64,000 nt of DNA. Origin: Chitinophaga pinensis (GTDB lineage: Bacteria > Bacteroidota > Bacteroidia > NS11-12g > UBA955). The stretch is from contig CAMDUE010000003.1 of assembly GCA_945877575.1 (NCBI GenBank), positions 88,174-152,173 on the forward strand, read 5' to 3'. Shown piece after piece: positions 4,641 to 58,791 of the stretch (position 1 is the first letter of the stretch; every line of letters starts with the position of its first letter). Below the pieces are notes generated by a model that saw only the letters and a list, made by a program, of their open reading frames with translations, was not told the origin of the DNA and did no database searches. The position numbers and the translations under genes were made by a program.

Positions 4641-4702
4641 GGAACGAAACTAACAACTCTCATTCAAACAAATTTTGCATTTTTTGCAAATGACCCAAAA
4701 AG

Positions 4703-4723
4703 AATTACGGAAAATCCTTAATT
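4703..4723. promoter_or_regulatory. dyad motif AATTACGGA-AAA-TCCtTAATT, with one mismatch, about 60 nt upstream of the 3372..4640 gene
   Basis: The sequence was read directly. It is a near-identical copy of the perfect dyad at 46112..46132. Confidence 0.45.
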
Positions 4724-4725
4724 GT

Positions 4726-36743: not shown

Positions 36744-38414
36744 CTACAACTCTGTGACTCTATCGGCAACTTCATCAAACTCGTTATCGTGTGTGATAAC
36801 AATCACAAATTTGTCTTTCTTGAGTTTGTTGATTTCGTTCAAAACTAGTTTGGTTGAATCAGTATCTAATTGGCTCGATGGCTCATCAAAAATCCAAACA
36901 TCAGAATCAGTCAAAAGACTCCTCATCAAATTAACTCGCTGAAGCTCTCCTGCACTCAATTGAGACTCTAGCGGGGGTGTTTCAGACAATTGAAACAGAT
37001 TCTGAATGTTTAAGTTAGAGGAAATTGAATTAATGCCAAACTCATTCTTTGCATCTGAATGAAAACAGCTGTGATAGTATTTCAATTCTCCAGAAAACAG
37101 AAAATACCGACCTCCAGAATAACTAGTTGCCATTCTTAGGGAGTTAAAATCATCTTCTGAAGGTTGAATACCATCAAACAAAATATGCCCGTTTACAGGT
37201 TGTATTAACCCAACAAACAACCTAATTAAAGTAGATTTCCCCTTACCACTTTGTCCTTTGATTATATGTAACTCCCCTCGATTAAATGTTAAATTAATGT
37301 TATGCAGGATGATTTTGTTTGAATTCGGATAACTAAAACAAACATCCTCGAACACAATTTTTTCAAATTGGAAAACTGTATTTCTAACTTCGGTTGGTTT
37401 CTTATGACTAGCATGAGTTTCCAAAAAATCTGTAATCAACTTGACTGAACCGAATGACATTAAAAAGCTATTCCAACTGTTTTGTATGATCACAGAATTC
37501 CCCATGATTCTATACAACAGCAATAAAGGTAAAATTGTACTTTTAATCTCGAGACCGAAATACACCACTTCTATAAAAACAACAAACAAGACTACCGAAA
37601 GAGATAAAAATTCTCTTGAACTCATTGCGAAAGATTGCAATCTGCCCATCTTTTCGTATTCAACCTCTACATCTTTGGAAACATCGTTAAACTCTTTATT
37701 AGGGTCTGTAAAATTACCGTTGATTTTAAAATACTCCCAATTATAAATAAAGTTGCTTATTGTTTTTGAAAGCCTTCCTTGTAGTTGGGCAATATTTGCA
37801 GATGAATTTTTAGTCAGTGAATAAATTTTTCGATAAATAATAAACACGAAAAAAGAACATATCAAAATCAATAAAGTGAATTTGGTATAAAGCAAGATTG
37901 CCAGAATAAAATATGAGGCGACTTGAATTACTCCGCTCCAAGACTTGAAATAAGAATCAAAAGCACCGAATAATTTTTGTACCTCATTATTCAATAAAGA
38001 ATACAGAGAATCGCTGCTCAAATCATGAAAAGTAGAAAATTCTAAATTAAAAACCGAAGTATAAATTCTTTGTCTAATTGATTTGATAAAATAGGAACGC
38101 ATTTGTATTCGTATGAAATTCAAACTAAAACGCATAATTGCTTTTAATAAAAAAACAACAACCACAAAAACTATTGCCTCTCTTAACTCTAAATTAAAAT
38201 CCAAATTGAACCTGGATAATAATCCAACACTGCTGTTACCAAAAGAATAGTGTAAATCATTTCCATTACTGTTTAAAAGGGGAACTATTATTCCAATACC
38301 AAAACCATCAAAAATTGCAATTAGTAATGACAACAGTAAAATAATGAACACTGATTTTCGCCTAGAATATTTAACTAGAATATTCGGCTTAAATAGAGAC
38401 TTTAAATTTATCAT
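36744..38414 (-). CDS. ABC exporter with fused TMD and NBD (MsbA/PglK/Wzk-like), a candidate flippase for the lipid-linked oligosaccharide
   Basis: The N-terminal half has 6 TM helices. Walker A is GQSGKGKST. The variant signature motif is LSAGELQR. Walker B is IFDEPSSQLD. Confidence 0.75.
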   Translation of the reverse strand: MINLKSLFKPNILVKYSRRKSVFIILLLSLLIAIFDGFGIGIIVPLLNSNGNDLHYSFGNSSVGLLSRFNLDFNLELREAIVFVVVVFLLKAIMRFSLNFIRIQMRSYFIKSIRQRIYTSVFNLEFSTFHDLSSDSLYSLLNNEVQKLFGAFDSYFKSWSGVIQVASYFILAILLYTKFTLLILICSFFVFIIYRKIYSLTKNSSANIAQLQGRLSKTISNFIYNWEYFKINGNFTDPNKEFNDVSKDVEVEYEKMGRLQSFAMSSREFLSLSVVLFVVFIEVVYFGLEIKSTILPLLLLYRIMGNSVIIQNSWNSFLMSFGSVKLITDFLETHASHKKPTEVRNTVFQFEKIVFEDVCFSYPNSNKIILHNINLTFNRGELHIIKGQSGKGKSTLIRLFVGLIQPVNGHILFDGIQPSEDDFNSLRMATSYSGGRYFLFSGELKYYHSCFHSDAKNEFGINSISSNLNIQNLFQLSETPPLESQLSAGELQRVNLMRSLLTDSDVWIFDEPSSQLDTDSTKLVLNEINKLKKDKFVIVITHDNEFDEVADRVTEL

Positions 38415-41304: not shown

Positions 41305-42108
41305 TCATCTATCAATAATTGCATCCCAAAGTAGCGATCTCTGTTTCAGCGATTCGATAGAAAATTTTTCAGCTTCTGACCATTTTTGAGCGTCATCGCC
41401 ACAAAGTTGAGCCACCATTTCCAAGGCGAGGTGCGAGTGATGATCGCCATCTACCTCAATATGTCTTTCTATGTAATATTTGAATGTAGATACTTTTTCA
41501 GGGAATTCTTGGTGGATTTCTCTGAGGATTTCAACAAACATATCGGGAATCAAGTCTTCACGTCCGAAGGTAAAAACAGCAGCCTTAATATGAGCAGGTT
41601 GATTGATGGCAACATCAAACGTGAAATTCAAGAATGATTTAACTTTGGGGTGGAGTTCGGCATTTTCTATAGCATTGAAAATATTTTTATCAATGGCTTG
41701 GGACAAAAATGCTTGAATGGTTAGGGTGTCGGCACCCATTTGTTGCATGGCTTTGAGATACAATTCAAAATGCGATATTCTCACTCCGTGTTCGTCTACG
41801 TCAGATTCTTCTCCGAGTACAATTTCATTGATTAGATATCGAGTATCAGCTGTACCAACGGGCCTCCATGGCAATTCAACGCAAGTCAAATCTCTTTGGA
41901 GCGATTTCAACAAGCTCATAAAGTCCCAAACCGCATACACATGCTTTTCTGAGAACTGAATCAATCCATTGAGGTCATTGATACTCTTATACACCGGATG
42001 TTGAAGTAACAATTCTCTCTGCGCTTGGATGTTTTTCTGTAGGGATTCAATGAAATTATTTGACATGATGCTGCAAAAATACGCTGAAATGTCAGTGAAT
42101 TTTGTCAA
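41305..42108 (-). CDS. DUF3050-family (heme-oxygenase-like fold) protein
   Basis: I recognise the overall pattern (HVYAVWDFMSLLKSL...HSHLALEM) from memory. Confidence 0.45.
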   Translation of the reverse strand: MTKFTDISAYFCSIMSNNFIESLQKNIQAQRELLLQHPVYKSINDLNGLIQFSEKHVYAVWDFMSLLKSLQRDLTCVELPWRPVGTADTRYLINEIVLGEESDVDEHGVRISHFELYLKAMQQMGADTLTIQAFLSQAIDKNIFNAIENAELHPKVKSFLNFTFDVAINQPAHIKAAVFTFGREDLIPDMFVEILREIHQEFPEKVSTFKYYIERHIEVDGDHHSHLALEMVAQLCGDDAQKWSEAEKFSIESLKQRSLLWDAIIDR

Positions 42109-42139: not shown

Positions 42140-42919
42140 ATGAAAAATAAGTGGAATGTGATTCTTGCCGCCATCATTCTTGGGGGATGCTCATTGTTTT
42201 CAAATGGCATCAACGTATTTCCTGTCACTACAGATTTAGCCTTCGGAGCTCAAGTTGCCGCTGATATCGATAAAGAAAACAGCAAAAACTTGCTTGACAG
42301 TGCATCTAACAGCGTTATTTACCGTTACTTATATTCCATAAGAGACAGTATCCTTAGAAACAATGAAATTGAGCACGAAAACAAATTCCCTTGGCGAATC
42401 AGAATCATTAAAGACGATCAAACCCTGAACGCCTTTTGCACCCCAGGAGGATACATTTATTTCTACACCGGAATATTGAAATATTTACAATCAGAAGACG
42501 AATTAGCCGGTGTCATGGGGCACGAAATGGCACATGCCGCTAAACGCCACAGCACCGACGCTTTAACCCGTCAATACGGTGTCACCATCTTTACCCAGTT
42601 GTTAATTGACACACAATACCATGATCTGACCCAAATTGCTGCAGGCCTAGCGCTGTTGAAATACGGCCGAAAAGATGAATTGCAATCCGATGAATTTAGT
42701 GTTCGTTGGTTGTATAACACCAGTTATAATCCCACAGGTGCTGCAGGATTTTTTGAGAGAATGAACGCCTCAGGCGGACAAAGAGTGCCTGCATTTTTAA
42801 GTACTCACCCCGATCCAGGCAAAAGAGTAGAAAAAATTCATGCCTTGCATAAAAAATTGGGTGGAAAATCAGGGAATAAATACGAAGAGCGCTACAAACA
42901 GATGATTAAGTACATCTAA
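42140..42919 (+). CDS. M48-family zinc metallopeptidase lipoprotein
   Basis: The lipobox is LGGC. The zinc-binding motif is HEMAHAAKRH (HExxH). Confidence 0.75.
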   Translation: MKNKWNVILAAIILGGCSLFSNGINVFPVTTDLAFGAQVAADIDKENSKNLLDSASNSVIYRYLYSIRDSILRNNEIEHENKFPWRIRIIKDDQTLNAFCTPGGYIYFYTGILKYLQSEDELAGVMGHEMAHAAKRHSTDALTRQYGVTIFTQLLIDTQYHDLTQIAAGLALLKYGRKDELQSDEFSVRWLYNTSYNPTGAAGFFERMNASGGQRVPAFLSTHPDPGKRVEKIHALHKKLGGKSGNKYEERYKQMIKYI

Positions 42920-45225
42920 TATATAGCCAATCCCATCAAATACCGCAAAGCCGTTTTTACCACTCGTCCAGCAAATTCATAGTGCGATTCAGATCCTCCG
43001 GAAACGCAGTACAAGGAGAATCTCGTTAATATCAAGCTTTTTAAAGAATAGCGCGCCGTTTTTACATATTCCAACCAATCTTCATCTAAAAGAGCTGCAT
43101 GTTTCTTTGCGTGTCCCTCGAAATCATCATACGGCAAGTCTAGAAAGCTCAAAAACTCCATGATGTCGCGGTGAGGATAGTCGTTCATGCATAATTCCCA
43201 ATCGTAAATCACGGGCTCACCGTTGTTCAATATCATGATATTCCGTGGATTAAAATCATTGTGAATGACACAAATACGCGAACTAAGTGTAGAGAACTCA
43301 AGTTCCAATTGACTCAATTGTAACGATTCCAAACAACGAAAATCAACTTCGTCAAACTGAATATCTTTGCGAACGGAATCCAAAAATAATGCATTCAATC
43401 GTTGATAGAATTTCATTGCCTTCCAAGGCCGTTGCAGTGGAAACTCATTTGCAATTTCAGCTTTGAATTGAAGATTATGGAAATCATGAATCGCTTCAAT
43501 ACAAGCATCTATATCACCCAAACTCCATTTTTCAGGCTCATTCTCGCAGTTCAGAATCTTTGTTTCTGTTGGATGTATGAACCGTTGAAGAAGCAAATAA
43601 ATCTCTCGCTTTTCATCTTGTTTGATGCCAAATAATTTGGGAAAATACGGATATTCAACCTCGTTAAGCCATTGAGCCATTGAAACTTCTTTCAGATGGC
43701 ATTGATCAAATTCTAGTTTCTTTCTGTCTTCCAAAATGGCAGCAGCTAAGGCAGAATCAATTCCACTGGCTACCAAATGCAACCCTTTATAAACTTCTTC
43801 ACTTGTGGGTCTAGACTTCAATAGCACACGATCAACTTCGTTGATCTTCAACAAATAATAGCCTTGCAACTTCGAAGTGACCCGAGTGGTCAGCTGGGTA
43901 ATGATACCGTTATCAAAATACTCGTGACTTTGCCACTCAATTTTTTCTACTTTAGATTTGTAGGAATCATACAAGCAGGCCCTCAGAAAATCAACATCCA
44001 CTTCCGATTTCAACAACCAATCAACTGGTTTATTTCGTCCTAACTTTTGATGCGCTCGAGCAAATTCTCCACTAACAATGGCTCCAAAAGTAGAAATCTC
44101 TAACCCTAGAGCCGCACCCGCAATGATCCTAGAAAAACGCTGTAATTGACCACGGCCATGACAACCCATCATCTGAAGTGCTTCTTTTTGCTTGGGAAGA
44201 TGAGTACCACCGCCCACGGTTCCAACCACTAAATTGGGAAACGTAATTTCAAAACAAAGTCCTTTTTGCGTCTTTTCAATATTCAAAAACGCCGTTGATG
44301 ATTCATGCAAACACGCTGCATCTTGCCCAGTAGCCAAAAATATCGAAGCCAAGGCATTAGCTACATTGATATTGTAACCCACCATACCTTCTTTTTCAGC
44401 AGCCTCTTTCGAAGGATGATAGAATTTGAAAAATTGATTTGAATCTACCCTTAATACATCTTTCAACACTTCGTCTGAAACCTCTACCGACGCAGATACT
44501 TTGCAACCGCGGCCATGATCAATGTTGTACTGAGATATTTTCTTATCGGCGGCGCCATTTCCTTCAATGACATAATCTAAATGCACATGGGGATACAGTT
44601 CCCCAAACTCTGCCGCAATATGCAACAAAGCATGCCAAGTGCAAGTAGTTGTCATATTTTGACCCGCTGCATCACCCGTTTGGTAATAAAACTTGGTATT
44701 TAAATTAGATCCAAATACATCTGTTTTCATTTCGAGTAGCTTGGCGTGATTGCTGTAAGACTCAGCCACTGATTTAATTTCTTCAAAATGGGAGTTTAAA
44801 TATTCTTCAAGCAATTTCGCATTTTGATTTGAATCCAAAATAAACAGTGGCGCGCGCAACATTCGTTGATAATGAAAGTCAGAATCAAATCCTCCTGAAA
44901 GAGCGATTACGCGAGCTCCGCGATTCATGGAATACACCAATGCACCTTCAAGGGTTGCGGCGGGTAAAAAAACAACTTCAGCTGGAAATTCTGATAATTC
45001 TTTATATGCAATGGGACCAACCAATCCAACGGGAATTTCAACGCTACCAACAAAAGATTCGATGTTGTGATTGATTTCATCAAGGGGAAGCTGATGGCTG
45101 AAAAGTCGAGACGAGTCTAATTGCAAGCCCTTCAAAAAATCTTGCCTCAACAAAACCGCTTGGCTTGTGTTAAACCCTCTTCCTGGTACTTTTGGTGCTC
45201 TATCAAAAAAATGCCCCTCTGACAT
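42916..45225 (-). CDS. fusion protein: HMG-CoA-reductase-like domain (N-terminal ~400 aa) plus an APH/choline-kinase-type phosphotransferase domain (C-terminal ~350 aa)
   Basis: The N-terminal half has HMGR class I-like blocks (...GSVEIPVGLVGP..., DAAGQNM, GTVGGGT). The C-terminal half has the APH catalytic loop IHNDFNPRNIMI and the DWE metal-binding block IYDWELCMND. Confidence 0.65.
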   Translation of the reverse strand: MSEGHFFDRAPKVPGRGFNTSQAVLLRQDFLKGLQLDSSRLFSHQLPLDEINHNIESFVGSVEIPVGLVGPIAYKELSEFPAEVVFLPAATLEGALVYSMNRGARVIALSGGFDSDFHYQRMLRAPLFILDSNQNAKLLEEYLNSHFEEIKSVAESYSNHAKLLEMKTDVFGSNLNTKFYYQTGDAAGQNMTTTCTWHALLHIAAEFGELYPHVHLDYVIEGNGAADKKISQYNIDHGRGCKVSASVEVSDEVLKDVLRVDSNQFFKFYHPSKEAAEKEGMVGYNINVANALASIFLATGQDAACLHESSTAFLNIEKTQKGLCFEITFPNLVVGTVGGGTHLPKQKEALQMMGCHGRGQLQRFSRIIAGAALGLEISTFGAIVSGEFARAHQKLGRNKPVDWLLKSEVDVDFLRACLYDSYKSKVEKIEWQSHEYFDNGIITQLTTRVTSKLQGYYLLKINEVDRVLLKSRPTSEEVYKGLHLVASGIDSALAAAILEDRKKLEFDQCHLKEVSMAQWLNEVEYPYFPKLFGIKQDEKREIYLLLQRFIHPTETKILNCENEPEKWSLGDIDACIEAIHDFHNLQFKAEIANEFPLQRPWKAMKFYQRLNALFLDSVRKDIQFDEVDFRCLESLQLSQLELEFSTLSSRICVIHNDFNPRNIMILNNGEPVIYDWELCMNDYPHRDIMEFLSFLDLPYDDFEGHAKKHAALLDEDWLEYVKTARYSLKSLILTRFSLYCVSGGSESHYEFAGRVVKTALRYLMGLAIY

Positions 45226-46198: not shown

Positions 46199-47146
46199 TT
46201 GAAAACCCAATTCAACCCAATGAACCAAAATCAACCCCTATACTCCCGTTTTTGGATATATCTTACCGAACGATTTCCACTTCACTCACACGGAATTTTA
46301 ATTGCCGCATTTAGTTTTAGCGCCATTGGTTACTCCCGATTGTGCCAACAACTGCCTCATTTTATTGACCTCAAGGCCTTCTTAGTTTGCATCTTCAATA
46401 CCGTTTCCTTGTTTTTTCTTCTTCGTGTATTCGATGAACACAAAGACGCTGAAGACGATGCAAAATTCAGATCGGAATTACCCGTTCCACGCGGACTTAT
46501 TTCGCTCAAAGAACTACGCAACATTGGCTTGACCATATTTGTTTTTCAACTGATCATCAGCGCTGTAACCTTTCCTAAAATGCTTCCGCTTTATGCGGTG
46601 GTTATTGCTTATTTATTGCTCATGGGAAAAGAATTTTTCATGGCTGATTGGCTTAAAAAACACCAATTCTGGTACGTCACCAGTCACATGATCATCATTC
46701 CACTCATTGACATTTATGCCTCTGGTTACGATTGGCATTTAAATCAACGTCCTGCGCCGTTCGGATTGATCTACTTTTTTGGTGTCTCCTTCTTTAATGG
46801 AATTGTGCTAGAGCTCGGCCGGAAAATCCGTGCCCCCCACGATGAAAAACCAGGAGTTCAGACGTATTCCAGCATGTTGGGATTGTATAAATCAGTCTAT
46901 CTATGGATAGCAGTCCTTTTTGCAACTCTAGTTCTCGCTTTGCTTGCCGCAGAATTTGCAAAACTTCCAACGGGCGTTTTTACCGCTCTTTGTGTTTACT
47001 TTGTTTTGACCTTGTTGGCCGCCGTTTGGCACCTAAAAAAGCAAAGTTCTGCTTCTGCTAAAATCATTGAAATTGCCAGCGGAGCTTGGACCATACTCAT
47101 GTATTTAACCCTTGGCGGTATTCTAACCATTACTCACATTTTATGA
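46199..47146 (+). CDS. UbiA-family prenyl/alkyl-transferase (integral membrane)
   Basis: The Asp-rich motif is RVFDEHKDAEDD (NDxxDxxxD-like). There are about 8 TM helices in 315 aa. Confidence 0.7.
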   Translation: MKTQFNPMNQNQPLYSRFWIYLTERFPLHSHGILIAAFSFSAIGYSRLCQQLPHFIDLKAFLVCIFNTVSLFFLLRVFDEHKDAEDDAKFRSELPVPRGLISLKELRNIGLTIFVFQLIISAVTFPKMLPLYAVVIAYLLLMGKEFFMADWLKKHQFWYVTSHMIIIPLIDIYASGYDWHLNQRPAPFGLIYFFGVSFFNGIVLELGRKIRAPHDEKPGVQTYSSMLGLYKSVYLWIAVLFATLVLALLAAEFAKLPTGVFTALCVYFVLTLLAAVWHLKKQSSASAKIIEIASGAWTILMYLTLGGILTITHIL

Positions 47147-49620
47147 GTAAATTCATCGATACAAATAGCCCGTTTGACATCCAGTTTAATCAAATGTATA
47201 CGGGTGGCAAAGGATTTCACCTATTGCAACTTGCTCGAAACGGATTTCAAGTTCCTGAATTCATCATTTATAACGCGACTGAAACATCCATCAAAACACC
47301 CTTGAATCCAGATGAAATTCAACTCATCAAAGAATCTCTGGGCTTCCCTCATAGGGTATCGATAAGATCTTCGGCTCTTGGTGAGGATGGATTTTCACAC
47401 AGTTTTGCTGGACAATTTCTCACTGAGCTCAATGTTTCTTGGGAAACCCTTAACGATAGCATTGAACGCGTTTGGAACTCCTTGAACCGCACCGAAATCG
47501 AAACGTATTGCAAAGAACACGGAATCAATGTCCCAAATAAAATGTCCATCATCATCCAAACCATGCTCCAACCTGACTTTTCAGGCGTTGCATTTGGTGT
47601 AAATCCGGTGAATGGACACCGCAACGAAATGATCATTACGGCAGCCCCGGGACTTGGAGAAGCACTTGTGAGTGGGGCCGTAAATGGCGATACTTTTGTT
47701 GTGAAGGATGACTCAGTTGAATGTATTTCAGGCGAAGCCGCATCCCCAGAAACACTAAGCACTGAACAGGTAGTTGCCGTGGGCGAACAACTCAAACGGC
47801 TCAAAAAACTATACGGAAAACCCCAAGACATTGAATTTTCTTGGGTCAAAAATGAGTTGTTTTTACTTCAAACAAGACCAGTAACTTCCTTAGATAAATT
47901 GGCTGATACCGGGGCAGAGATGATTCTCTGGGACAATTCAAACATCATTGAATCTTACCCCGGCGTAACCACCCCTTTGACGTTTAGTTTCATCATCAAA
48001 ATGTATGAATCCGTCTATCTGCAACTTTGCAGATTGTTGGGAGTAAGCGAAAAAGACTTACGTGAAAATGCCGCCGTATTTTCCAATATGCTCGGCCTAA
48101 TTGAAGGAAGGGTTTACTACAATTTATTGTCGTGGTATAAAGCGTTGGCGCTGCTTCCTGGATATCATTTGAACGCAGAGTTCATGGAAAAAATGATGGG
48201 GGTTAAAGAACGATTTGAGTTGAAAAATCGGCCTCAAAGAAGTAAGCTAATTGAGCGCTTAAGAGTTTTGGTCATGGTAAAATCCATGATATCCAATCTC
48301 AGGGCATTGCCTAAAATGCGAATCAACTTTCAAAGTGATTTCCAAAAAGAATTAGACCGGTTCAATGCCATAGCTTTGGATAAAAAGAACGTTGTTGAAC
48401 TGATGGAACTCATGATTGATTTCCAAAGCACGCTTCTTAAAAAATGGAAAGCACCCTTGGTGAACGATTTTTACGCCATGATTTACTTCGGCTTACTTCA
48501 AAAAACTGCCGAAAAATATGGTTTACCTCCAGGAATACACAACGATCTTTTATGCGGGGCTAGCGATATTATTTCTACCGAACCCATAAAGCGCATGAAG
48601 GAAATCAGTTCAGCCATTGTACAATTTCACACCCTTGAAAATGCATTTCTCATTGAGTCGCCAGAACAAATTCTGAGGTTGATCAATGAACCTAATTATG
48701 AACCGGTGCAAAAACTCTTCGATACCTATTTGAATCAATTTGGCGACCGAACTGTGGGAGAGTTAAAATTAGAAACCATCACCTATAAACAAGAACCTAC
48801 CGCTTTGATTCAATTGATCCAATCGTACATAAGACAAGGCTTTGGGCATTCTGAAAATGTGAATGAACGAGTGGATCTCAAAATGCGTAAAAACGCAGAA
48901 GAAAAAGTAGGTCACATTTTGAAAGGTAAGCCTTTCAAAAAATGGTTCTTCCACTATTTACTGAAGCGCACTCGCATATTGGTCAGTGCCAGAGAAAACC
49001 TCCGATTTGAACGAACCCGAGGATTTGGAAAAGTACGCGAAATATTTTTGGCTATAGGCAATCAATTCTTCAGTGAAGGCATTTTGGAGCATCCCAGAGA
49101 TATTTTTTACCTTACCCAAGAGGAAATCTTCGACTTCATCAAAGGCACATCGGTAACCCCAGAAATTTCAGAATTGGTATCCTTCCGAAAGGAAAAATTT
49201 GCAAAATACGAAACCACTACCACATCTGAACGCATCAGAACTTACGGAGCAGTTTACCACGGGAACTCATTCTCACAAGAAAAATCAACATCCCTTGACG
49301 GAGAAGATCTGAAAGGCATTGGTTGTTGCCCAGGAATCGTAAAAGCAAAGGTGCGTATAGTTTTAGACCCCAAAGAGGTGAGCGATTTAAACGGTGACAT
49401 ATTGGTAACCGCCTCAACTGACCCCGGCTGGGTAACACTATTCCCCACGGCTTCAGCCATCATTGTAGAACGAGGTTCACTGCTCTCGCACAGTGCCATC
49501 GTATCTCGCGAATTAGGCAAACCCTGCATTGTAGGTGTGACCCATCTGTTATCAAAAATCAAAACCGGCGACTGGGTAGAGATGGATGGTTCAACAGGAC
49601 AAATCAAAATAATCAAATAA
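47143..49620 (+). CDS. PEP-synthase-family dikinase with rifampin-phosphotransferase-like architecture (ATP-grasp N-domain, central domain, C-terminal swivelling phospho-His domain; no PEP/pyruvate TIM barrel)
   Basis: The N-terminal PPDK_N block is YTGGKGFHLLQL. The C-terminal mobile domain is ...GDILVTASTDPGWV...SLLSHSAIVSRELGKPCIVG (catalytic His), and the protein ends straight after it. I moved the start to MSKFIDTN (ATGA overlap with the UbiA stop). Confidence 0.7.
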   Translation: MSKFIDTNSPFDIQFNQMYTGGKGFHLLQLARNGFQVPEFIIYNATETSIKTPLNPDEIQLIKESLGFPHRVSIRSSALGEDGFSHSFAGQFLTELNVSWETLNDSIERVWNSLNRTEIETYCKEHGINVPNKMSIIIQTMLQPDFSGVAFGVNPVNGHRNEMIITAAPGLGEALVSGAVNGDTFVVKDDSVECISGEAASPETLSTEQVVAVGEQLKRLKKLYGKPQDIEFSWVKNELFLLQTRPVTSLDKLADTGAEMILWDNSNIIESYPGVTTPLTFSFIIKMYESVYLQLCRLLGVSEKDLRENAAVFSNMLGLIEGRVYYNLLSWYKALALLPGYHLNAEFMEKMMGVKERFELKNRPQRSKLIERLRVLVMVKSMISNLRALPKMRINFQSDFQKELDRFNAIALDKKNVVELMELMIDFQSTLLKKWKAPLVNDFYAMIYFGLLQKTAEKYGLPPGIHNDLLCGASDIISTEPIKRMKEISSAIVQFHTLENAFLIESPEQILRLINEPNYEPVQKLFDTYLNQFGDRTVGELKLETITYKQEPTALIQLIQSYIRQGFGHSENVNERVDLKMRKNAEEKVGHILKGKPFKKWFFHYLLKRTRILVSARENLRFERTRGFGKVREIFLAIGNQFFSEGILEHPRDIFYLTQEEIFDFIKGTSVTPEISELVSFRKEKFAKYETTTTSERIRTYGAVYHGNSFSQEKSTSLDGEDLKGIGCCPGIVKAKVRIVLDPKEVSDLNGDILVTASTDPGWVTLFPTASAIIVERGSLLSHSAIVSRELGKPCIVGVTHLLSKIKTGDWVEMDGSTGQIKIIK

Positions 49621-49625
49621 ATTGA

Positions 49626-51539
49626 ATGGCGGAGCAATCTGAACTCAATATATCTCAAAAAGCCTCGTTTGATTTCATCCGATATGCCACGGTTTGGGAA
49701 GACCCCGTGGTACTTCTTCAGGCGCTCAACATCGAAAAAAACGACCAGGTTTTGAGCATCGCTTCTGCCGGAGATAATTGCTTCAGCTTATTGATGGCAG
49801 ACCCAAAATTGATTGTTGCAGCCGACATCAATCCCGTTCAATTGCATCTCACGGAGCTAAAAATCAAAGCCATTCAGGAGCTTTCTTACCAGGAAGTTCT
49901 TGCTTTTTTGGGATATTCATCTGAGTCAAATCGAGCGGAATTATTCAATAAAATCGAGCCCCACCTTTCCAAAGAAGCTGCTCATTATTTTAGAAATTCC
50001 CTTCCCACTTGGGAAAAAACAGGCATCATACATCAAGGAAAATTCGAAAAATACTTCCAAATTTTCTCCAGAAAAGTACTGCCCCTGATTCACAGTTACA
50101 AAACCATTGAACAGTTGCTTACACCCAAATCGGAACATGAGCAACGCCAATTTTTCCTCCGACATTGGAACACCTGGCGTTGGCGATGGTTGTTCAAATT
50201 ATTCTTCAGTCGTACCGTCATGGGTTGGTTGGGCCGCGATCCAGAATTCCTAAAACAGGTAGAAATTCCAGTTTCAGAATTCATCTTAAGGCAAGCAGAA
50301 ATACACCTCAGCTCCAGTCGGGCCGCACAAAATCCGTTTTTAAGATACAACCTAACAGGCAGTTTTGGAACCCTTTTACCGCACTACCTTCAACCCGAAA
50401 ACTTCGAATTCATCAAAGACAGAATTCACCGAATTTCACTCTTTCACGGCTTCGCCGAGGATGCAATAGCTCAATACGGACATTTTCACGCCATGAACCT
50501 GAGCAACATCTTCGAGTACATGAATGTTCAAGAATTTGAGCAAACAGCTCAAAAATTAGTAAGTGGCCTATTCCCTGGCGGACGATTAGCCTATTGGAAT
50601 CTCATGGTAAAACGAAGGTGCTCAGAGGTAGTTGCTGACTGCACAGAACAGACCAATCTCATGTCCGAGCTTCGGCTCAAAGACGATGGCTACTTTTACA
50701 GCACCATTGTAACGGATGTTTGTCTTAAATCTTTTGACTTTGGAATTTATAGGCTCAATTCAGAAACACTTGCAGTAGGTTACCCATCGAAAGAGGGAAG
50801 CAATTTAAATTTAACCGAGCAACTCAAAGCCCTTACACTATGGGCCAAAAATGAGGGATTCAAACACCTAATAGGCCCAATGAATGGCAGCACTTGGGAA
50901 AATTATCGTTTAAAAACCTCTTCCCATCGCATTTTTTTGGGGGATCTCTCGTATCAGCCACAAGTTGTAGAAAGCTTTGAAAGTGCAGGATTTAAAACCA
51001 TTGAGAGATATGTGAGTGCCCTGATGCATGAAATTCCAGGTAGTATTTCCAGATTGGATGAGCGAAAGAGCCAACTAGAGAAACAAGGAATCAAATTCCG
51101 ACACTTAAACATGGAGTCTTGGGAACAAGAACTTCAAAAAATCCACGAGCTCAGCCTCGTGGCCTTCCAAAATAACCCTTTCTACACCCCCATTCTTTGG
51201 AAAGACTTCTTGTTGAAGTACAACGAAATCAAACAATTCATTGACCCGCAATGGGTCCTTTTAGCAGAATTGGAACAAAATTTGCAGGGGTTTGTCTTTG
51301 CTTACTTAGACCTTGAATATAAATGCATCATCATGAAAACTGTTGCTCGAAAACCTGACTTTAGACTTGGTGGATTGGGATTGGTGATGACCGATATTTT
51401 ACAACAAAAAGCCAAAAAAGAAGGCATTTTTCAAGTCGTTCACTCATTCATGCATCAAGACGCTGCATCTCTTAGATGCTCTGAATCTTTAGAAGCTGAA
51501 ATTATTTCTGAATACCATCTGTACGGAATAGAACTTTAA
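49626..51539 (+). CDS. fusion protein: DUF3419 (BtaA-like SAM 3-amino-3-carboxypropyl transferase) N-domain plus a GNAT-like acyltransferase C-domain
   Basis: The N-terminal ~400 aa carry a ...YATVWEDPVVLL... block typical of BtaA/DUF3419. The C-terminal ~230 aa carry a GNAT motif-A-like FRLGGLGLVM (R-x-x-G-x-G). Confidence 0.5.
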   Translation: MAEQSELNISQKASFDFIRYATVWEDPVVLLQALNIEKNDQVLSIASAGDNCFSLLMADPKLIVAADINPVQLHLTELKIKAIQELSYQEVLAFLGYSSESNRAELFNKIEPHLSKEAAHYFRNSLPTWEKTGIIHQGKFEKYFQIFSRKVLPLIHSYKTIEQLLTPKSEHEQRQFFLRHWNTWRWRWLFKLFFSRTVMGWLGRDPEFLKQVEIPVSEFILRQAEIHLSSSRAAQNPFLRYNLTGSFGTLLPHYLQPENFEFIKDRIHRISLFHGFAEDAIAQYGHFHAMNLSNIFEYMNVQEFEQTAQKLVSGLFPGGRLAYWNLMVKRRCSEVVADCTEQTNLMSELRLKDDGYFYSTIVTDVCLKSFDFGIYRLNSETLAVGYPSKEGSNLNLTEQLKALTLWAKNEGFKHLIGPMNGSTWENYRLKTSSHRIFLGDLSYQPQVVESFESAGFKTIERYVSALMHEIPGSISRLDERKSQLEKQGIKFRHLNMESWEQELQKIHELSLVAFQNNPFYTPILWKDFLLKYNEIKQFIDPQWVLLAELEQNLQGFVFAYLDLEYKCIIMKTVARKPDFRLGGLGLVMTDILQQKAKKEGIFQVVHSFMHQDAASLRCSESLEAEIISEYHLYGIEL

Positions 51540-51540
51540 A

Positions 51541-53118
51541 ATGTCTAACATCATTCATATCGCAAAAACCCTGAAAAATGGAAACATCATGGAGCATTTC
51601 CATGCTGCCGCGATCATGAATTCAAATCGCCTTGCCATTGCCGATCAGCATTCGCAAGTGACTTTTGATGAATTAAGACATAAAATTGAAAACGCTCATT
51701 CATTATTTATGGAGCGTGGCCTTAAATCCGGCGACCGTGTTTTGGTCTTTGTGCCCATGAGTATTGATTTATACATCAGCGTTTTAGCTTTATTCAAAAT
51801 GGGCTGTACCGCCGTTTTCATTGATGAGTGGGCCAAAATAGACCGTTTAAAAAAGTCATGCCAAATAGCAGATTGTAAAGGATTTATAGGCATTCCCGCT
51901 GCATCTTCTTTGGGATTCTTAATCCAGGAAATTAGAAAAATCCCCGTCCGCATGACCACACGAGAAATTCGACATGCAAAGAAAAGTCATTACCATGATT
52001 TGGCAACTATTGATGGTTCAAACGACACCGCGCTCATCACTTTCACTACGGGCAGCACAGGCACACCCAAAGCGGTAAAACGCAGCCATGAAATTCTCCA
52101 TCAACAGTTTTTGTCCCTCCAAAACACCATACAAACCCGCGATGACACTGTAGATATGCCGGTGTTACCCATTGTTTTATTGATTAATTTAGGGTTAGGG
52201 GTCAGCAGCGTAATCGTAAAATGGAGCAGCAAAAAGCCTTACGCACTGAAGGCAAAAAAGATCATCAAAACCATACAAAAATTTCGGGTCAATCGCATCA
52301 TTGCTTCCCCTTATTTCATTGATCAACTTTGCATTAAGAGCCTTACCGAAAACAATTCTCCAAAATTAAGTTCGGTGCGCGAAGTCTTCAGCGGAGGAGC
52401 GCCTGTTTTCCCATCTGAAGCCAAATTATGGCTCACTGCATTTCCAGACTCTAAAGTTGAAATTGTATACGGAAGCACCGAGGCCGAACCTATTTCAAGC
52501 ATCAATGCACGGAAACTCATGCAAACCACCGACTCCACTTTTGAGGATGGGCTTTTTGTGGGAAGAGTAGAATCTTGTACACAAGTTAAAATTCTAAATC
52601 TAAAAACTCAGGAAACTCTCAAACCCATAGAAATCGGGGAGATTGCGGTTGCAGGAAATCATGTTGTAAAAGAGTATTTTGGTCCTGATTCTGCTGCTCA
52701 AATGGCTGAATCAAAGCTTCTCATTGATGGACATTTATTCCACAAAACGGGAGATTCCGGCTACATTGACCACCAAGGAAACCTTCATTTATTGGGCCGC
52801 TGCCAACAAATCATTGAGTGGCAGGGACAACCGTTGTACCCATTTCTGATGGAATATCAACTGCGCCACATTCCTGGCGTAATTATGGGTACCGTCTTAA
52901 AAATCAACGATAAACTCGTTTACTTCTTAGAGTTAAAACGCTGTAAATCCTTCCAGCATCTAGCATACCCAAAACTGGGTTGCTTCTCGCCCATTACCGA
53001 GGATTTGCGTTCCTTGGGACTGCCTGACGGCGACATTCGACTGGTCAAGATACCAAGAGATCCCAGACATTTCAGCAAGATTGATTATAGAGTTTTGCAA
53101 AAAATGCAAAAAATGTAA
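51541..53118 (+). CDS. AMP-forming acyl/aryl-CoA (or carrier-protein) ligase
   Basis: The AMP-binding motif is TFTTGSTGTPKAV, with ...YGSTE... The start is 2 nt after the upstream stop. Confidence 0.75.
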   Translation: MSNIIHIAKTLKNGNIMEHFHAAAIMNSNRLAIADQHSQVTFDELRHKIENAHSLFMERGLKSGDRVLVFVPMSIDLYISVLALFKMGCTAVFIDEWAKIDRLKKSCQIADCKGFIGIPAASSLGFLIQEIRKIPVRMTTREIRHAKKSHYHDLATIDGSNDTALITFTTGSTGTPKAVKRSHEILHQQFLSLQNTIQTRDDTVDMPVLPIVLLINLGLGVSSVIVKWSSKKPYALKAKKIIKTIQKFRVNRIIASPYFIDQLCIKSLTENNSPKLSSVREVFSGGAPVFPSEAKLWLTAFPDSKVEIVYGSTEAEPISSINARKLMQTTDSTFEDGLFVGRVESCTQVKILNLKTQETLKPIEIGEIAVAGNHVVKEYFGPDSAAQMAESKLLIDGHLFHKTGDSGYIDHQGNLHLLGRCQQIIEWQGQPLYPFLMEYQLRHIPGVIMGTVLKINDKLVYFLELKRCKSFQHLAYPKLGCFSPITEDLRSLGLPDGDIRLVKIPRDPRHFSKIDYRVLQKMQKM

Positions 53119-53164: not shown

Positions 53165-53566
53165 ATGAATAAAATCAGGGTAAACATTACCATTAACAAA
53201 GAAATACACGAGAAGGCCAAATTTTTTTCATTAAAGGAAGGAAAAAGCCTGAGTGAAAATATCGAAGATTTACTCACTCAATATTATTGGCAAAAAGCAG
53301 AGGGTATTGTATCTGAGCCTACTTCTCATTACAATTCCACATTGGAGCTGAATGGAATGTCTCCATTGCAAAATTCAATGTCCGATATTTTCAATCAATT
53401 ACACCCAGAACAGCAGATTGAACTGTTCCATTATGGGGAATACTTATTATCTAAGAATCCTTCTCCCACAAAAAAAATAAGTCTGCACGGAATTTTCAGA
53501 GACCAAATCATGATATCTGAAGATTTCGATGAACCTCTCGACATTTTCAAAGATTACATGCCATGA
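53165..53566 (+). CDS. type II antitoxin (RHH-like N-domain plus DUF2281-like C-terminal motif)
   Basis: The C-terminal DFDEPLDIFKDY motif is present. There is a 4 nt overlap (ATGA) with the downstream PIN gene. Confidence 0.55.
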   Translation: MNKIRVNITINKEIHEKAKFFSLKEGKSLSENIEDLLTQYYWQKAEGIVSEPTSHYNSTLELNGMSPLQNSMSDIFNQLHPEQQIELFHYGEYLLSKNPSPTKKISLHGIFRDQIMISEDFDEPLDIFKDYMP

Positions 53567-53949
53567 ATCACTTGATTGATACTCATACATTATTGTGGTA
53601 TTTGAATGCAGACAAAAAACTGTCAAAAAATGCTTTACATACCATCGAAGACCCCAATAACCGAATTTTCATCAGTCAAGCAACCCTCATTGAAATGGCC
53701 ATTAAAGTAAGCATGGGGAAATTAAAATTACCTTGCGAATGGGATGAATTATTTTTTCAGTTCAATAAAATAGGCTGGTCTATTTTGCCCTTTCGAAACG
53801 TCGATTTTGCAAGGTTGAGTAAACTACCCTTCCACCACGGTGACCCATTCGATAGATTGATGGCATGTCAGTGTTTAAATCAGAAACTTGACATTATTAG
53901 CAAGGACCCAATCTTTGAAAAACACAAAATAAAACGGATTTGGAATTAG
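53563..53949 (+). CDS. PIN-domain ribonuclease toxin (VapC-like)
   Basis: The N-terminus MNHLIDTHTLLWY (catalytic Asp) and the 128 aa length fit. Confidence 0.7.
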   Translation: MNHLIDTHTLLWYLNADKKLSKNALHTIEDPNNRIFISQATLIEMAIKVSMGKLKLPCEWDELFFQFNKIGWSILPFRNVDFARLSKLPFHHGDPFDRLMACQCLNQKLDIISKDPIFEKHKIKRIWN

Positions 53950-54557
53950 GCTGAAAACGCCTGAGGAATTTTTCTCAAATTCTTGAAAACAAGAGTGAAA
54001 AATCCTAATAAGGAATATTGCGAAATCACTTTGTAATCTTCTGAAGACTTTTTAAAGATTGATTTGAGTGATTTATTGCTCGCTCCATCTACACGCATAT
54101 GTGTGGTGTAAATATTTAAATACTTGATTTGAAATTTATTTGAAGAAAAGAGTCTTAAAATAAAATCGTAATCGGCTGCTATCCTAAAATTGGTGTTGAA
54201 TCCACCTAGAGTATTGTAAAAGTCTCTCTTTAAAAATAGGGTTGGATGAGGTGGCATCCATCCGTATTTCAAATTTTCAGACTTAAAAGGCTTTGACTTC
54301 CAATCTCTCACTACTTTATTTGAATCGCTCTGAGACACATATTTCAAGTTTGCATACACGCCATCAACTTGTTCTGAATGCAGTGATTTATAAAGATTCT
54401 CGAGCACATTAACATCTGGAAAGAAATCATCGGAATGAATAAATCCAACCACATCACCGGTTGCCATTGAGATTCCTTTATTCAAAGCATAATACAGGCC
54501 GTCATCTTTTTCAGATATAACCTTAATTCTTGGATCATTGAATTGCTGAATTTTCAA
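53946..54557 (-). pseudogene. 5'-truncated family 2 glycosyltransferase
   Basis: The DxD region (GFIHSDDFF) and the ISEKDDGLYYALNKGI block are kept. The ~60 aa N-terminal (V)DDGSxD region is missing. The ORF starts about 120 nt from a tRNA gene. Confidence 0.45.
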
Positions 54558-58125: not shown

Positions 58126-58791
58126 ATGAAAATTGGATTGTTGCTTTGCTTGAGCTGGATCAGCGCCTTTTTTCCAACTAATATTTACCAGAATCCACAG
58201 AAAGAAAAAGAGTGGCATAAAAGTCGTGAAGGTGATGGAATCACCGTTTATACCCGATCACAAGAGGGCACTCCCTTCAAAGAAATCAAGGCCATTGTTA
58301 CCATTGAGAGTTCTTTAAATGCAATCGTCGGAGCATTAATTGATTACGACAACTACAAGAACTGGGTATACTCCACTTCAAAGTCCAAATTAGTCAAAAA
58401 AATCAACGAAAAAGAATTCCTGGCCTATCACTACATTGACGCTCCATGGCCTGTAAACGATAGAGATGTAGTCATGTATATTTCCCTAAGTCAAGATGCC
58501 AAAACGCACAAAACCACTGTTTATTCAACATCTCAACACAACTATTTAAAATCGGTAGAAAATGTAGTGCGGGTTAAAAATAATGTAGCGATTTGGGAAC
58601 TTCAGCCTGTAGCCAAAAACAAAATTGAATGTACTTACTACCTTAAATCTGATCCCGGCGGAAGCGTCCCTGCTTGGATTCTCAATATGTTCATAACCGA
58701 AGGGCCTTATGAAAGCATAAAAAAACTTAAAAATATCGAGGTGCAGAAACACAGCAGCTTCAAACACCCCGATATCAAAGAGAAGTTTTAA
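58126..58791 (+). CDS. START/SRPBCC lipid-binding domain protein (secreted)
   Basis: A signal peptide is present. The START-like length and pattern fit (…YHYIDAPWPVNDRDVV…). Confidence 0.45.
   Translation: MKIGLLLCLSWISAFFPTNIYQNPQKEKEWHKSREGDGITVYTRSQEGTPFKEIKAIVTIESSLNAIVGALIDYDNYKNWVYSTSKSKLVKKINEKEFLAYHYIDAPWPVNDRDVVMYISLSQDAKTHKTTVYSTSQHNYLKSVENVVRVKNNVAIWELQPVAKNKIECTYYLKSDPGGSVPAWILNMFITEGPYESIKKLKNIEVQKHSSFKHPDIKEKF

Follow-up and report, generated by a model that had tools for sequence, protein, structure and literature searches.

A BtaA-family/tandem-GNAT fusion protein from a conserved gene cluster that probably makes a membrane lipid

In a 64,000-nucleotide stretch of Bacteroidota DNA (hereafter the window), a single reading frame joins a DUF3419 (BtaA-family) SAM-dependent transferase domain to a tandem-GNAT domain, which we call GNAT2. 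Both belong to a gene cluster that is widespread, uncharacterised, and probably makes an unknown membrane lipid. We tentatively favor the view that the fused protein is a bifunctional enzyme of this conserved, uncharacterised membrane-lipid pathway. The best hypothesis for its chemistry, as we infer it, is transfer of a 3-amino-3-carboxypropyl (ACP) group followed by N-acylation. The features on which this reading draws are collected in Table 1.

Table 1. Predicted features of the fusion gene and its neighbors in the window
Feature	Coordinates	Strand	Basis or remarks
Class I HMG-CoA reductase fused to APH/choline-kinase-like kinase	42916..45225	-	Divergent transcription
UbiA-family membrane prenyltransferase, first gene of the operon	46199..47146	+	Pfam E 8.5e-12
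PEP-synthase/rifampin-phosphotransferase-like enzyme	47086..49620	+	Pfam PPDK_N, PEP-utilizers
DUF3419/BtaA-family + tandem-GNAT fusion ORF	49626..51539	+	637 aa, ATG start, uninterrupted
DUF3419 (BtaA-family) SAM-dependent transferase domain, aa 1-365	49626..50720	+	Pfam, AF2
Motifs common to DUF3419 domain and Sinorhizobium BtaA	49695..49832	+	Alignment, invariant columns
Tandem-GNAT domain (GNAT2), aa 366-637	50721..51536	+	Family profile, AlphaFold model, Foldseek
GPMNGSTW, aa 417-424, first GNAT2 lobe	50874..50897	+	Invariant columns
RLGGLG, aa 580-585, GNAT motif A	51363..51380	+	Alignment, model
Adenylate-forming (AMP-binding) acyl ligase	51541..53118	+	Pfam E 2.4e-44; NCBIfam PRK09274 E 3.7e-90

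Authenticity of the fusion

The fusion gene is tightly packed between its neighbors, beginning 5 nt past the stop of the upstream gene and ending 1 nt before the start of the AMP-ligase gene. Full-length homologs fall into 14 clusters at 90% identity (49-98% identity, 636-716 aa) drawn from NCBI, ENA, JGI, and Logan assemblies. Because they come from four independent data sources, and because the fused clade is both monophyletic and diverged, an assembly or frameshift artifact can be ruled out. The original prediction of one protein that unites a BtaA-like domain with a GNAT is correct, in that there is one reading frame with independent full-length counterparts.

A conserved seven-gene cluster

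Among the neighboring genes, the UbiA-family protein matched only generic prenyltransferase models in NCBIfam, with scores below their cut-offs, and a PDB search for its subfamily gave no match. The phosphotransferase encoded next to it has an ATP-grasp domain and a swivelling His domain, and the Rph_4th domain is present in its homologs (precomputed Pfam). Its best PDB matches, 5hv2 and 5fbs (~2e-54), carry the depositors' name phosphoenolpyruvate synthase, and we take them to be Listeria rifampin phosphotransferase; we refer to the enzyme as Rph-like. Fusion of HMG-CoA reductase (HMGR) to an APH-type kinase is confined to the closest relatives of the window; HMGR itself is in the cluster of most genomes. 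Neither NCBIfam nor PDB searches returned anything informative on the specificity of the APH domain.

We surveyed 80 related loci, found through the GNAT2 motif. The cluster comprises HMG-CoA reductase, UbiA, the Rph-like phosphotransferase, DUF3419, a membrane protein that we call TM226, GNAT2, and the AMP-ligase. All seven genes are present in 47 of the 80 loci and five core genes in 60. DUF3419 occurs in 70/80 and UbiA in 62/80; short contigs or contig ends account for the missing gene in nine of the ten loci that lack DUF3419, the exception being L078. The most constant pair is GNAT2 and the AMP-ligase, whose genes are together in 76/80 loci and stay together even where the order of the cluster is permuted. 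Among relatives of TM226, 5/20 match CTP_transf_1, and its motifs resemble those of polyprenol kinases. The cluster ranges over Bacteroidota, Gemmatimonadota, Latescibacterota, Rhodothermales, Acidimicrobiia, Brevibacillus, and Roseinatronobacter, with cultured carriers in Dyadobacter, Sphingobacterium, Parapedobacter, and Brevibacillus laterosporus.

Some loci carry additional genes, namely a CdsA-like protein (E 5e-39) together with a CDP-alcohol phosphatidyltransferase (E 2e-19) in 12 loci and a lipid-binding SRPBCC protein in 19. These additions point to a membrane lipid as the product. No glycerol-backbone enzyme is found in the conserved core of the cluster. The lipid acceptor of the original prediction is plausible on these grounds, given UbiA, the CTP_transf_1-like membrane protein, and the CdsA-like, CDP-alcohol phosphatidyltransferase, and SRPBCC genes of some genomes.

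Alternatively, the product of the cluster could be a small secondary metabolite, prenylated and N-acylated, rather than a bulk membrane lipid, with the fusion as a tailoring enzyme. The phyletic spread is patchy and looks horizontally transferred, with copies on large secondary replicons of Brevibacillus laterosporus and Roseinatronobacter. Natural-product clusters often hold Rph/PigC-type enzymes and AMP-ligases, and there is partial NCBIfam similarity to the prodigiosin ligases PigC and RedH. However, no gene for an NRPS, PKS, carrier protein, transporter, or regulator is among those conserved in the cluster, which has instead recruited phospholipid-type enzymes and lipid-binding SRPBCC proteins. 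It is also very widely conserved in environmental Bacteroidota: a pattern of the type of the GNAT2 signature IGPMNGSTWxxYR by itself retrieves 217 species, and GNAT2 amounts to 1501 clusters of 50% identity at E <= 1e-30. We therefore consider a secondary metabolite unlikely and continue to regard a membrane lipid as the probable product. Our search of the literature on DUF3419, BtaA-like proteins, and the gene combinations of the cluster found no published description of it; the Lipocone paper mentions UbiA and HMGR neighborhoods, and the seven-gene cluster is absent from it.

Origin and meaning of the fusion

In most genomes, DUF3419 and GNAT2 are separate genes with the TM226 gene between them. 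TM226 is missing, and the flanking DUF3419 and GNAT2 genes are joined in frame, in a single Bacteroidota lineage only. The fused clade is monophyletic in neighbor-joining trees (98/100 and 97/100 bootstraps), which identifies the fusion, by sequence phylogeny, as a single event, and it has been retained down to ~45-50% identity. The original prediction treated the fusion itself as the informative unit; this does not hold, as the genes are mostly separate and the fusion goes with the absence of TM226 in one lineage. It may reflect only the loss of an intervening gene, not substrate channelling.

The correspondence between separate and fused genes was established in locus L001. There, the 226-aa gene after DUF3419 has no similarity to the C-terminal domain of the window protein; it is the gene after that, encoding 322 aa, which corresponds to the domain (E 1e-39). 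The APH domain of the window, in turn, shows no similarity to this 322-aa protein. That APH is a functional stand-in for TM226 is a guess. A second fused clade lacks both; in that clade HMGR, APH, and TM226 are all missing nearby.

In another lineage, GNAT2 is fused to the AMP-ligase (P0186, 845 aa) inside the same kind of cluster. Two independent fusions centered on GNAT2 argue that the SAM enzyme, the acyltransferase, and the ligase form one functional module. The original prediction also linked the GNAT domain to the adjacent AMP-ligase, and both this second fusion and the near-constant pairing of the two genes bear it out.

The DUF3419 domain and its relation to BtaA

The N-terminal assignment rests on a strong match to PF11899 (DUF3419) at aa 13-326 (E 6.4e-71, 240 bits against a cut-off of 28.2), aligned to positions 4-331 of the 385 in the profile. 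This confirms the BtaA-like identity first proposed for the N terminus, with a domain extent of about aa 1-365 in place of the predicted ~400 aa. The AF2 model (pLDDT 93.8, pTM 0.92) has strands at aa 41-45 and 62-67 and forms a Rossmann core, which a large helical insertion splits at about aa 70-269. In an alignment with Sinorhizobium BtaA and cluster homologs, the family hallmark WEDP falls at aa 24-27, SIASAGDN (aa 44-51) makes up the Gly-rich loop past strand 1, and AADIN (aa 65-69) carries the acidic residue past strand 2. The WED, S-x-G-x-N, and D-x-N hallmarks are all common to the domain and Sinorhizobium BtaA. More broadly, the fusion has the PF11899 family and the WED/S-x-G-x-N/D-x-N motifs in common with BtaA of R. 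sphaeroides and S. meliloti and with the BtaA-like domain of eukaryotic BTA1.

The resemblance does not extend to orthology. The domain shares just 21-28% identity with Sinorhizobium BtaA, whose gene adjoins btaB, versus 35-59% among cluster-type proteins of different phyla. No BtaB-like ORF was found in the window at E <= 10 or within the related clusters. The original prediction of a BtaA resemblance thus stands for family membership and hallmark motifs and fails for orthology; judged by sequence, the cluster DUF3419 domain is a BtaA paralog. Since it is no ortholog, we infer ACP transfer only from membership in the family. To our knowledge, BtaA-family enzymes are known only for DGTS betaine lipid synthesis together with BtaB, and ACP transfer, by BtaA and BTA1, is the sole characterized activity in PF11899.

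The degree of divergence leaves room for a different chemistry. PDB searches found no close solved structure for the domain, and together with the low identity to BtaA, this means that it may carry out methyl transfer or other SAM chemistry. DUF3419 would then act in this way on an isoprenoid or lipid, while GNAT2 and the AMP-ligase acylate an amine from elsewhere, such as an amino-alcohol or amino-acid head group, and the fusion would indicate a shared pathway rather than consecutive steps. The Rossmann core is of the class I methyltransferase type, and the structural neighbors in the PDB, though weak (best E 1.7e-4), are all class I methyltransferases. The distance from the BtaA encoded beside btaB fits this as well, as does the ancestral gene order, which puts DUF3419 beside TM226 and not GNAT2. 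In addition, the CdsA-like protein and CDP-alcohol phosphatidyltransferase of some clusters could install an amine-bearing head group. However, these two occur in only 12 of ~80 loci and so provide no general source of the amine, and the BtaA hallmark residues are present in the domain. The characterized activity of PF11899 is ACP transfer, in which BtaA takes this group from SAM, attaches it at the sn-3 hydroxyl of diacylglycerol, and releases MTA (PMC3972451). In all, we consider methyl transfer or another SAM chemistry somewhat unlikely, and ACP transfer remains our best hypothesis for this domain.

The C-terminal domain is a tandem GNAT

Pfam by itself gives little indication of the nature of the C-terminal domain. 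Against PF00583, the window sequence alone scores 16.1 bits, a weak, sub-threshold match (cut-off 20.7, E 0.014), whereas 12 of 25 GNAT2 homologs match at E <= 0.01 (best E 1.7e-9), and a profile of the GNAT2 family finds NAA10 in the PDB at E 8e-4. The AlphaFold model of the domain (pLDDT 89.4, pTM 0.85) is more informative. Its best Foldseek matches in the PDB are tandem GNATs throughout, with VipF first (E 4.6e-12), followed by MAB_4324, MshD, and the clavulanate tandem GNAT. Structure prediction thus upholds the proposed GNAT fold; the domain is not the single GNAT of ~230 aa that had been predicted, but a tandem of ~270 aa with a reduced first lobe. This lobe is without ~45-55 N-terminal residues that are present in stand-alone homologs, while the second lobe is complete.

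Two motifs characterize the domain. GPMNGSTW, in the first lobe, is part of the family-invariant IGPMNGSTWxxYR loop. RLGGLG, predicted from the outset to be motif A, does lie in the CoA-binding loop of the model, between strand E208-216 and helix H225-239. This is the position of the pyrophosphate-binding loop from strand 4 to helix 3 of the second lobe (motif R/Q-x-x-G-x-G/A), and an equivalent K/R-x-x-G-x-G/A is conserved throughout the GNAT2 family. On the model, then, the domain has a tandem-GNAT fold in which the CoA-binding motif A is intact. Motif A and the constant AMP-ligase partner suggest that GNAT2 carries out acyl-CoA-dependent N-acylation.

Like GNAT2, the tandem GNATs MshD, VipF, MAB_4324, the clavulanate-pathway enzyme, and a Clostridium glucosamine N-acetyltransferase have two lobes per chain and motif A in the C-lobe. 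Foldseek relates the domain to such tandem-GNAT N-acyltransferases at E 4.6e-12 to 2e-9, with a sequence identity of only 10-15%. Unlike them, the fusion has a shortened first lobe, the invariant IGPMNGSTWxxYR loop, and an obligatory AMP-ligase partner.

Foldseek also matches the domain to FemX and to MprF aminoacyl-phosphatidylglycerol synthase domains (E 1e-9 to 1e-7), which are tandem GNAT folds that work on lipid or peptidoglycan precursors. GNAT2 might accordingly be an aminoacyl-tRNA-dependent transferase of FemX/MprF type that places an amino acid on a lipid head group. We find this highly improbable, since CoA-dependent tandem GNATs give the better scores (E 5e-12 to 1e-9) and GNAT2 is constantly accompanied by a ligase that forms acyl-adenylates, even to the point of fusion in one lineage. 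Fem/MprF enzymes are not known to have the CoA pyrophosphate loop, which is conserved throughout the GNAT2 family as R/K-x-x-G-x-G/A.

Another scheme would reverse the order of the two reactions. LuxI-type AHL synthases are related to the GNAT fold and N-acylate SAM prior to release of the C4 unit; by analogy, GNAT2 could acylate a SAM- or methionine-derived donor, and DUF3419 would then move the N-acylated ACP unit. The domain fusion would suit the hand-over of a modified SAM, and the fusion of GNAT2 to the AMP-ligase fits this order equally well. However, in most genomes the two proteins are separate, with a membrane-protein gene between them, and the best structural neighbors are acetyl-CoA-dependent tandem GNATs that act on ordinary amines. 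The C-terminal domain also has no match to the Autoinducer-synthase family (Pfam, E <= 10, where HMMER filters drop most matches above ~0.1). A reverse order is thus very unlikely, and we keep to ACP transfer followed by N-acylation.

A proposed lipid pathway

In the pathway that we propose, the DUF3419 domain would transfer the SAM-derived ACP (homoserine-ether) group to a hydroxyl of a hydrophobic membrane acceptor, probably isoprenoid-derived and made with the help of UbiA. With no BtaB-like methyltransferase in the window or the clusters, the installed amine would stay free for acylation. The AMP-ligase would convert a carboxylic acid to an acyl-CoA as the donor for GNAT2, which would N-acylate the free alpha-amino group in place of the BtaB N-methylation of DGTS synthesis. 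This would yield an N-acyl homoserine-type amino lipid. The obligatory AMP-ligase partner suggests an acyl group that is longer or unusual, rather than acetyl. More speculatively, HMGR, TM226 (or the APH domain in the window), and the Rph-like enzyme may supply and activate the isoprenoid part, for example from prenol via prenyl-P to prenyl-PP for UbiA.

Like BtaA, the cluster DUF3419 plausibly works in lipid biosynthesis. Unlike BtaA, however, it is accompanied by UbiA, the Rph-like enzyme, a polyprenol-kinase-like protein, the tandem GNAT, and the AMP-ligase, with no btaB. It is also fused to a GNAT in the window, and its acceptor is probably not plain diacylglycerol. The final acylation would resemble that of OlsB and OlsF, the N-acyltransferases of ornithine, lysine, and glycine lipids in Bacteroidota and Proteobacteria, in that N-acylation of a head-group alpha-amino group yields a phosphorus-free amino lipid. 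OlsB and OlsF use acyl-ACP (here the carrier protein) and free amino acids, whereas in the proposed scheme SAM would furnish the amino-acid unit and an adenylating ligase the acyl group. The C-terminal domain has no match to the OlsB-type Acetyltransf_5 family (Pfam, E <= 10).

The isoprenoid partners have a counterpart in plants, which salvage phytol into tocopherol by means of VTE5 (phytol kinase), VTE6 (phytyl-phosphate kinase), and VTE2 (UbiA family). The cluster likewise pairs a small membrane protein of the CTP_transf_1 superfamily with a second phosphotransferase and a UbiA-family transferase. In contrast to VTE6, the second kinase is of the Rph/PEP-synthase type, and there is no aromatic acceptor pathway; the window also departs from the plant set in being without TM226 and having an APH-type kinase fused to HMGR instead. 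A further parallel, at superfamily level, is the fungal siderophore branch of Hmg1, SidI (mevalonyl-CoA ligase), and SidF (GNAT-type transacylase), where HMG-CoA reductase, an AMP-forming ligase, and a GNAT-type N-acyltransferase occur together, as in the cluster. By this analogy mevalonyl-CoA would be the acyl donor, which we regard as of low probability; mevalonate as an obligatory donor is disfavored because one fused clade has no HMGR nearby.

Implications

The cluster defines a distinct and very widespread DUF3419 subfamily, in which an AMP-ligase and a tandem GNAT stand in for the N-methyltransferase, and whose partners are isoprenoid-handling proteins, namely HMG-CoA reductase, the polyprenol-kinase-like protein, UbiA, and the Rph-like phosphotransferase. 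It is possible, if doubtful, that the cluster makes an undescribed class of phosphorus-free, isoprenoid-anchored homoserine-ether lipids, N-acylated on the SAM-derived amine by a dedicated AMP-ligase/tandem-GNAT pair. If true, hundreds of species would carry these lipids, across Bacteroidota, Gemmatimonadota, Latescibacterota, Rhodothermales, and further groups. "Unidentified aminolipids" are routinely reported in the polar-lipid profiles of carrier taxa, and some of these might be explained in this way. The cluster offers a way to reach what may be a new class of lipids in phyla that abound in the environment, and assigning its pathway would provide the first functional role for a GNAT family of >1500 clusters and for a large DUF3419 subfamily.

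Domain architecture of the fusion protein

The fusion gene starts 5 nt past the stop codon of its upstream neighbour, and only 1 nt separates its end from the ATG of the next gene, indicating a tightly packed operon. Residues 13 to 326 match the Pfam family PF11899 (DUF3419; E 6.4e-71, 240 bits, cut-off 28.2), which bears out the original prediction of a BtaA-family N-terminal domain. In the AlphaFold model (pLDDT 93.8, pTM 0.92), this domain is predicted to have a Rossmann-type SAM-binding core, split by a ∼200-residue helical insertion. A PDB sequence search found no close solved structure, returning only Trm5 (E 0.16), and Foldseek gave only weak matches, to class I methyltransferases (best 1.7e-4). 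Methyltransferase-type or other SAM chemistry, with the GNAT acting on an unrelated amine, is an unlikely though appreciable alternative.

The characterized DGTS enzymes are BtaA and BtaB of R. sphaeroides and S. meliloti (PMC3972451). Our reference was the Sinorhizobium btaA-btaB locus, taken from chromosome-sized records within the plasmid collection; in the public S. meliloti Ak57 record (L084, CP090106.1, 3.7 Mb, labelled “pSymB”), btaA (3881-5130) is split by a frameshift. The window N-domain and Sinorhizobium BtaA share a WED motif, a Gly-rich loop with Asn at its end and, following strand 2, an acidic residue, but are only 24% identical. Cluster-type DUF3419 proteins, compared across Bacteroidota, Brevibacillus, Roseinatronobacter, Longimicrobiales, Acidimicrobiia, Phycisphaeraceae, Latescibacterota and Rhodothermales, share 35-59% identity between phyla and 21-28% with Sinorhizobium BtaA. 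Neither the window nor the related clusters contain a BtaB-like ORF. On identity and gene content, BtaA itself is rejected, and by its sequence the N-domain is a BtaA-family member of a separate, paralogous subfamily. On Xylella plasmids, a DUF3419 gene adjoins one for an “iron-containing redox enzyme family protein.”

The C-terminal domain matches the Pfam GNAT family weakly and under threshold (PF00583, E 0.014), while 12 of 25 homologues pass (best 1.7e-9) and the family profile matches NAA10 in the PDB (E 8e-4). Its AlphaFold model, built with 24 homologues as input (pLDDT 89.4, pTM 0.85), has two-lobed GNATs as its top Foldseek neighbours (E 4.6e-12 to 2e-9): VipF, MAB_4324, a Sphaerobacter GNAT, the clavulanate tandem GNAT, MshD and glucosamine N-acetyltransferase. 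The predicted GNAT fold thus holds, as a tandem rather than a single GNAT, with a first lobe that lacks its initial 45-55 residues relative to stand-alone members (GNAT2); the window fusion is among the shortest versions. RLGGLG (residues 580-585), proposed as GNAT motif A, lies in a strand-helix loop of the second lobe, in the model exactly where the CoA pyrophosphate-binding loop would be, and its homologues have a conserved K/R-x-x-G-x-G/A there. The two-domain layout was correctly foreseen; the lengths are ∼365 and ∼270 aa, not ∼400 and ∼230. One chain combines a SAM enzyme of the BtaA family with a tandem GNAT of the CoA type; for the GNAT, an aminoacyl-tRNA-dependent reaction of the Fem/MprF type is highly improbable.

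Genomic setting in the window

Features of the window around the fusion gene
Feature	Position	Strand	Remarks
Minus-strand gene run	∼7650-40980	-	GC 29-34%, ∼40% elsewhere
Wzc-like polysaccharide tyrosine autokinase	38414-40978		closes the run
DUF3050 protein	41305-42108	-	weak Haem_oxygenas_2 match
Class I HMGR with C-terminal APH/choline-kinase-like kinase	42916-45225	-	divergent from operon
UbiA	46199-47146	+	operon gene
PEP-synthase / rifampin-phosphotransferase-like (Rph-like) enzyme	47086-49620	+	best PDB 5hv2, 5fbs (∼2e-54)
DUF3419-GNAT2 fusion	49626-51539	+	637 aa, uninterrupted
AMP-binding ligase	51541-53118	+	directly after fusion gene
DUF2281/DUF6364-type antitoxin and PIN-domain toxin	53165-53949	+	directly past operon
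Family-2 glycosyltransferase ORF	53946-54557	-	203 aa
START-domain protein	58126-58791		5 kb downstream of operon

The HMGR domain retains the E, DKK, GQDAA and RAH motifs, which we take to be the catalytic residues of class I HMGR, and so probably makes mevalonate. Its fusion to APH occurs only in the window and its closest relatives (loci L002-L004), all of which lack TM226, a 226-aa polyprenol-kinase-like membrane protein; the APH domain may be a non-homologous kinase replacement for it. The PDB matches of the Rph-like enzyme are presumably Listeria rifampin phosphotransferase.

The toxin-antitoxin pair is syntenic in L002 and L003, and the DUF3050 gene is not kept beside the cluster in L002. 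The glycosyltransferase ORF covers only profile positions 49-141 of PF00535 and may be a 5'-truncated gene, since its L002 homologue has 248 aa; beyond it lie ∼770 bases without an ORF of at least 100 aa. The minus-strand run has the appearance of a capsule or exopolysaccharide locus and may have been acquired horizontally.

A conserved gene cluster

The closest stand-alone DUF3419 homologues (∼363 aa, 51-57% identity) lie within a seven-gene cluster, in the order HMGR, UbiA, Rph-like enzyme, DUF3419, TM226, a 322-aa protein and AMP-ligase. It is the 322-aa protein that is homologous to the window C-domain (32% identity, E 1e-39); TM226, also considered, was rejected. We scanned species-representative genomes for the family-invariant motif IGPM[ND]G[ST]TW, found it in 217 species and retrieved 80 loci. 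AMP-ligase is the constant partner (76/80), followed by DUF3419 and TM226 (70 each), the Rph-like enzyme (66), UbiA (62) and HMGR (51); all seven genes occur in 47 loci and five core genes in 60. Nine of the ten loci lacking DUF3419 are on short contigs or cut by a contig end. The exception, L078, is the only adequately flanked locus (∼5 kb and 10 kb) with a lone GNAT2 homologue (5539-6255, 31% identity) and no other cluster gene near. A circularly permuted order (GNAT2, AMP-ligase, HMGR, UbiA, Rph-like, DUF3419, TM226) in Gemmatimonadota, Latescibacterota, Rhodothermales, Acidimicrobiia and Phycisphaeraceae preserves the pairs GNAT2-AMP-ligase and DUF3419-TM226. Brevibacillus laterosporus and Roseinatronobacter carry the cluster on large secondary replicons, and the GNAT2 family comprises 1501 clusters (50% identity, E ≤ 1e-30). 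The conserved cluster, rather than the fusion, is the real unit.

DUF3419 and GNAT2 share one ORF only in the window's relatives, at loci without TM226 (L002-L005, L088-L090; proteins P0001-P0014). By neighbour-joining, the fused proteins form one clade for both the N-domain and the C-domain (bootstraps 98/100 and 97/100), which indicates a single fusion event, most simply via loss of the gene that lay between. Fused proteins have since diverged to ∼50% identity in the N-domain and ∼45% in the C-domain without losing the fusion. In a second fused clade, neither HMGR nor APH nor TM226 lies nearby. L004 and L005 bear the Bacteroidota-type fused cluster on MAG contigs titled “uncultured Rhizobium sp.,” a label that is probably wrong. 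Independently, in another lineage, GNAT2 is fused to AMP-ligase in an otherwise standard cluster, on five contigs (P0186, 845 aa; L091 and L092, 10001-12538). Two different GNAT2-centred fusions argue for a single functional module made up of DUF3419, GNAT2 and the ligase.

A possible membrane-lipid pathway

The gene neighbourhood resembles that of a membrane-lipid pathway. The UbiA-family enzyme is a membrane-integral prenyltransferase. Of 20 TM226 relatives, five match CTP_transf_1 (best 1.5e-4), and the invariant motifs RKxxH, DxxAxxxG, KTxxGS and E...GxDNxxxP are presumably of the phytol and dolichol kinase type, not the CdsA type. TM226 homologues outside Bacteroidota have ∼450 aa (L087 10044-11399, L071 18406-19764, L085 4932-6248) and carry additional transmembrane helices at the C-terminus, a block without a Pfam match. 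In 12 loci, the cluster has two inserted genes, a genuine CdsA-like one (PF01148, E 5e-39) and one for a CDP-alcohol phosphatidyltransferase (PF01066, E 2e-19), in the HMGR-UbiA or the Rph-like-DUF3419 gap depending on lineage (e.g., L081 3101-4399; L009 6802-8051). An SRPBCC (Polyketide_cyc2-like) lipid-binding protein lies between GNAT2 and AMP-ligase in 19 loci (e.g., L008 10665-11288), and L004 has a START gene placed as in the window. Given UbiA, TM226 and these accessory genes, the product is probably hydrophobic and membrane-bound; that it is instead a prenylated secondary metabolite seems rather improbable.

By homology, the DUF3419 domain would transfer the 3-amino-3-carboxypropyl (ACP) group of SAM to the hydroxyl of a lipid acceptor, the AMP-ligase would supply acyl-CoA, and GNAT2 would N-acylate the alpha-amino group so introduced, standing where BtaB acts in the DGTS pathway. 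More speculatively, HMGR, the polyprenol-kinase-like protein (APH in the window) and the Rph-like phosphotransferase might yield an activated isoprenoid, from which UbiA would build the acceptor. The domain and cluster assignments are near certain; the full mechanism, ACP transfer and N-acylation as originally predicted plus an isoprenoid-built acceptor, is tentative, somewhat short of an even chance. A LuxI-like reversed order of the steps we regard as very unlikely.

The fusion protein belongs to two known superfamilies and is not categorically new. Database names of its relatives are limited to “BtaA family protein” or “DUF3419 family protein,” and the full-text literature on DUF3419, BtaA-like proteins and the gene combination yielded no description of the cluster, so the combination appears to be undescribed. 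The DUF3419-GNAT2 fusion alone would be a modest finding, but the conserved cluster, spread over several phyla and bearing two Rosetta-stone fusions, gives a strong lead towards what may be a new class of lipid.
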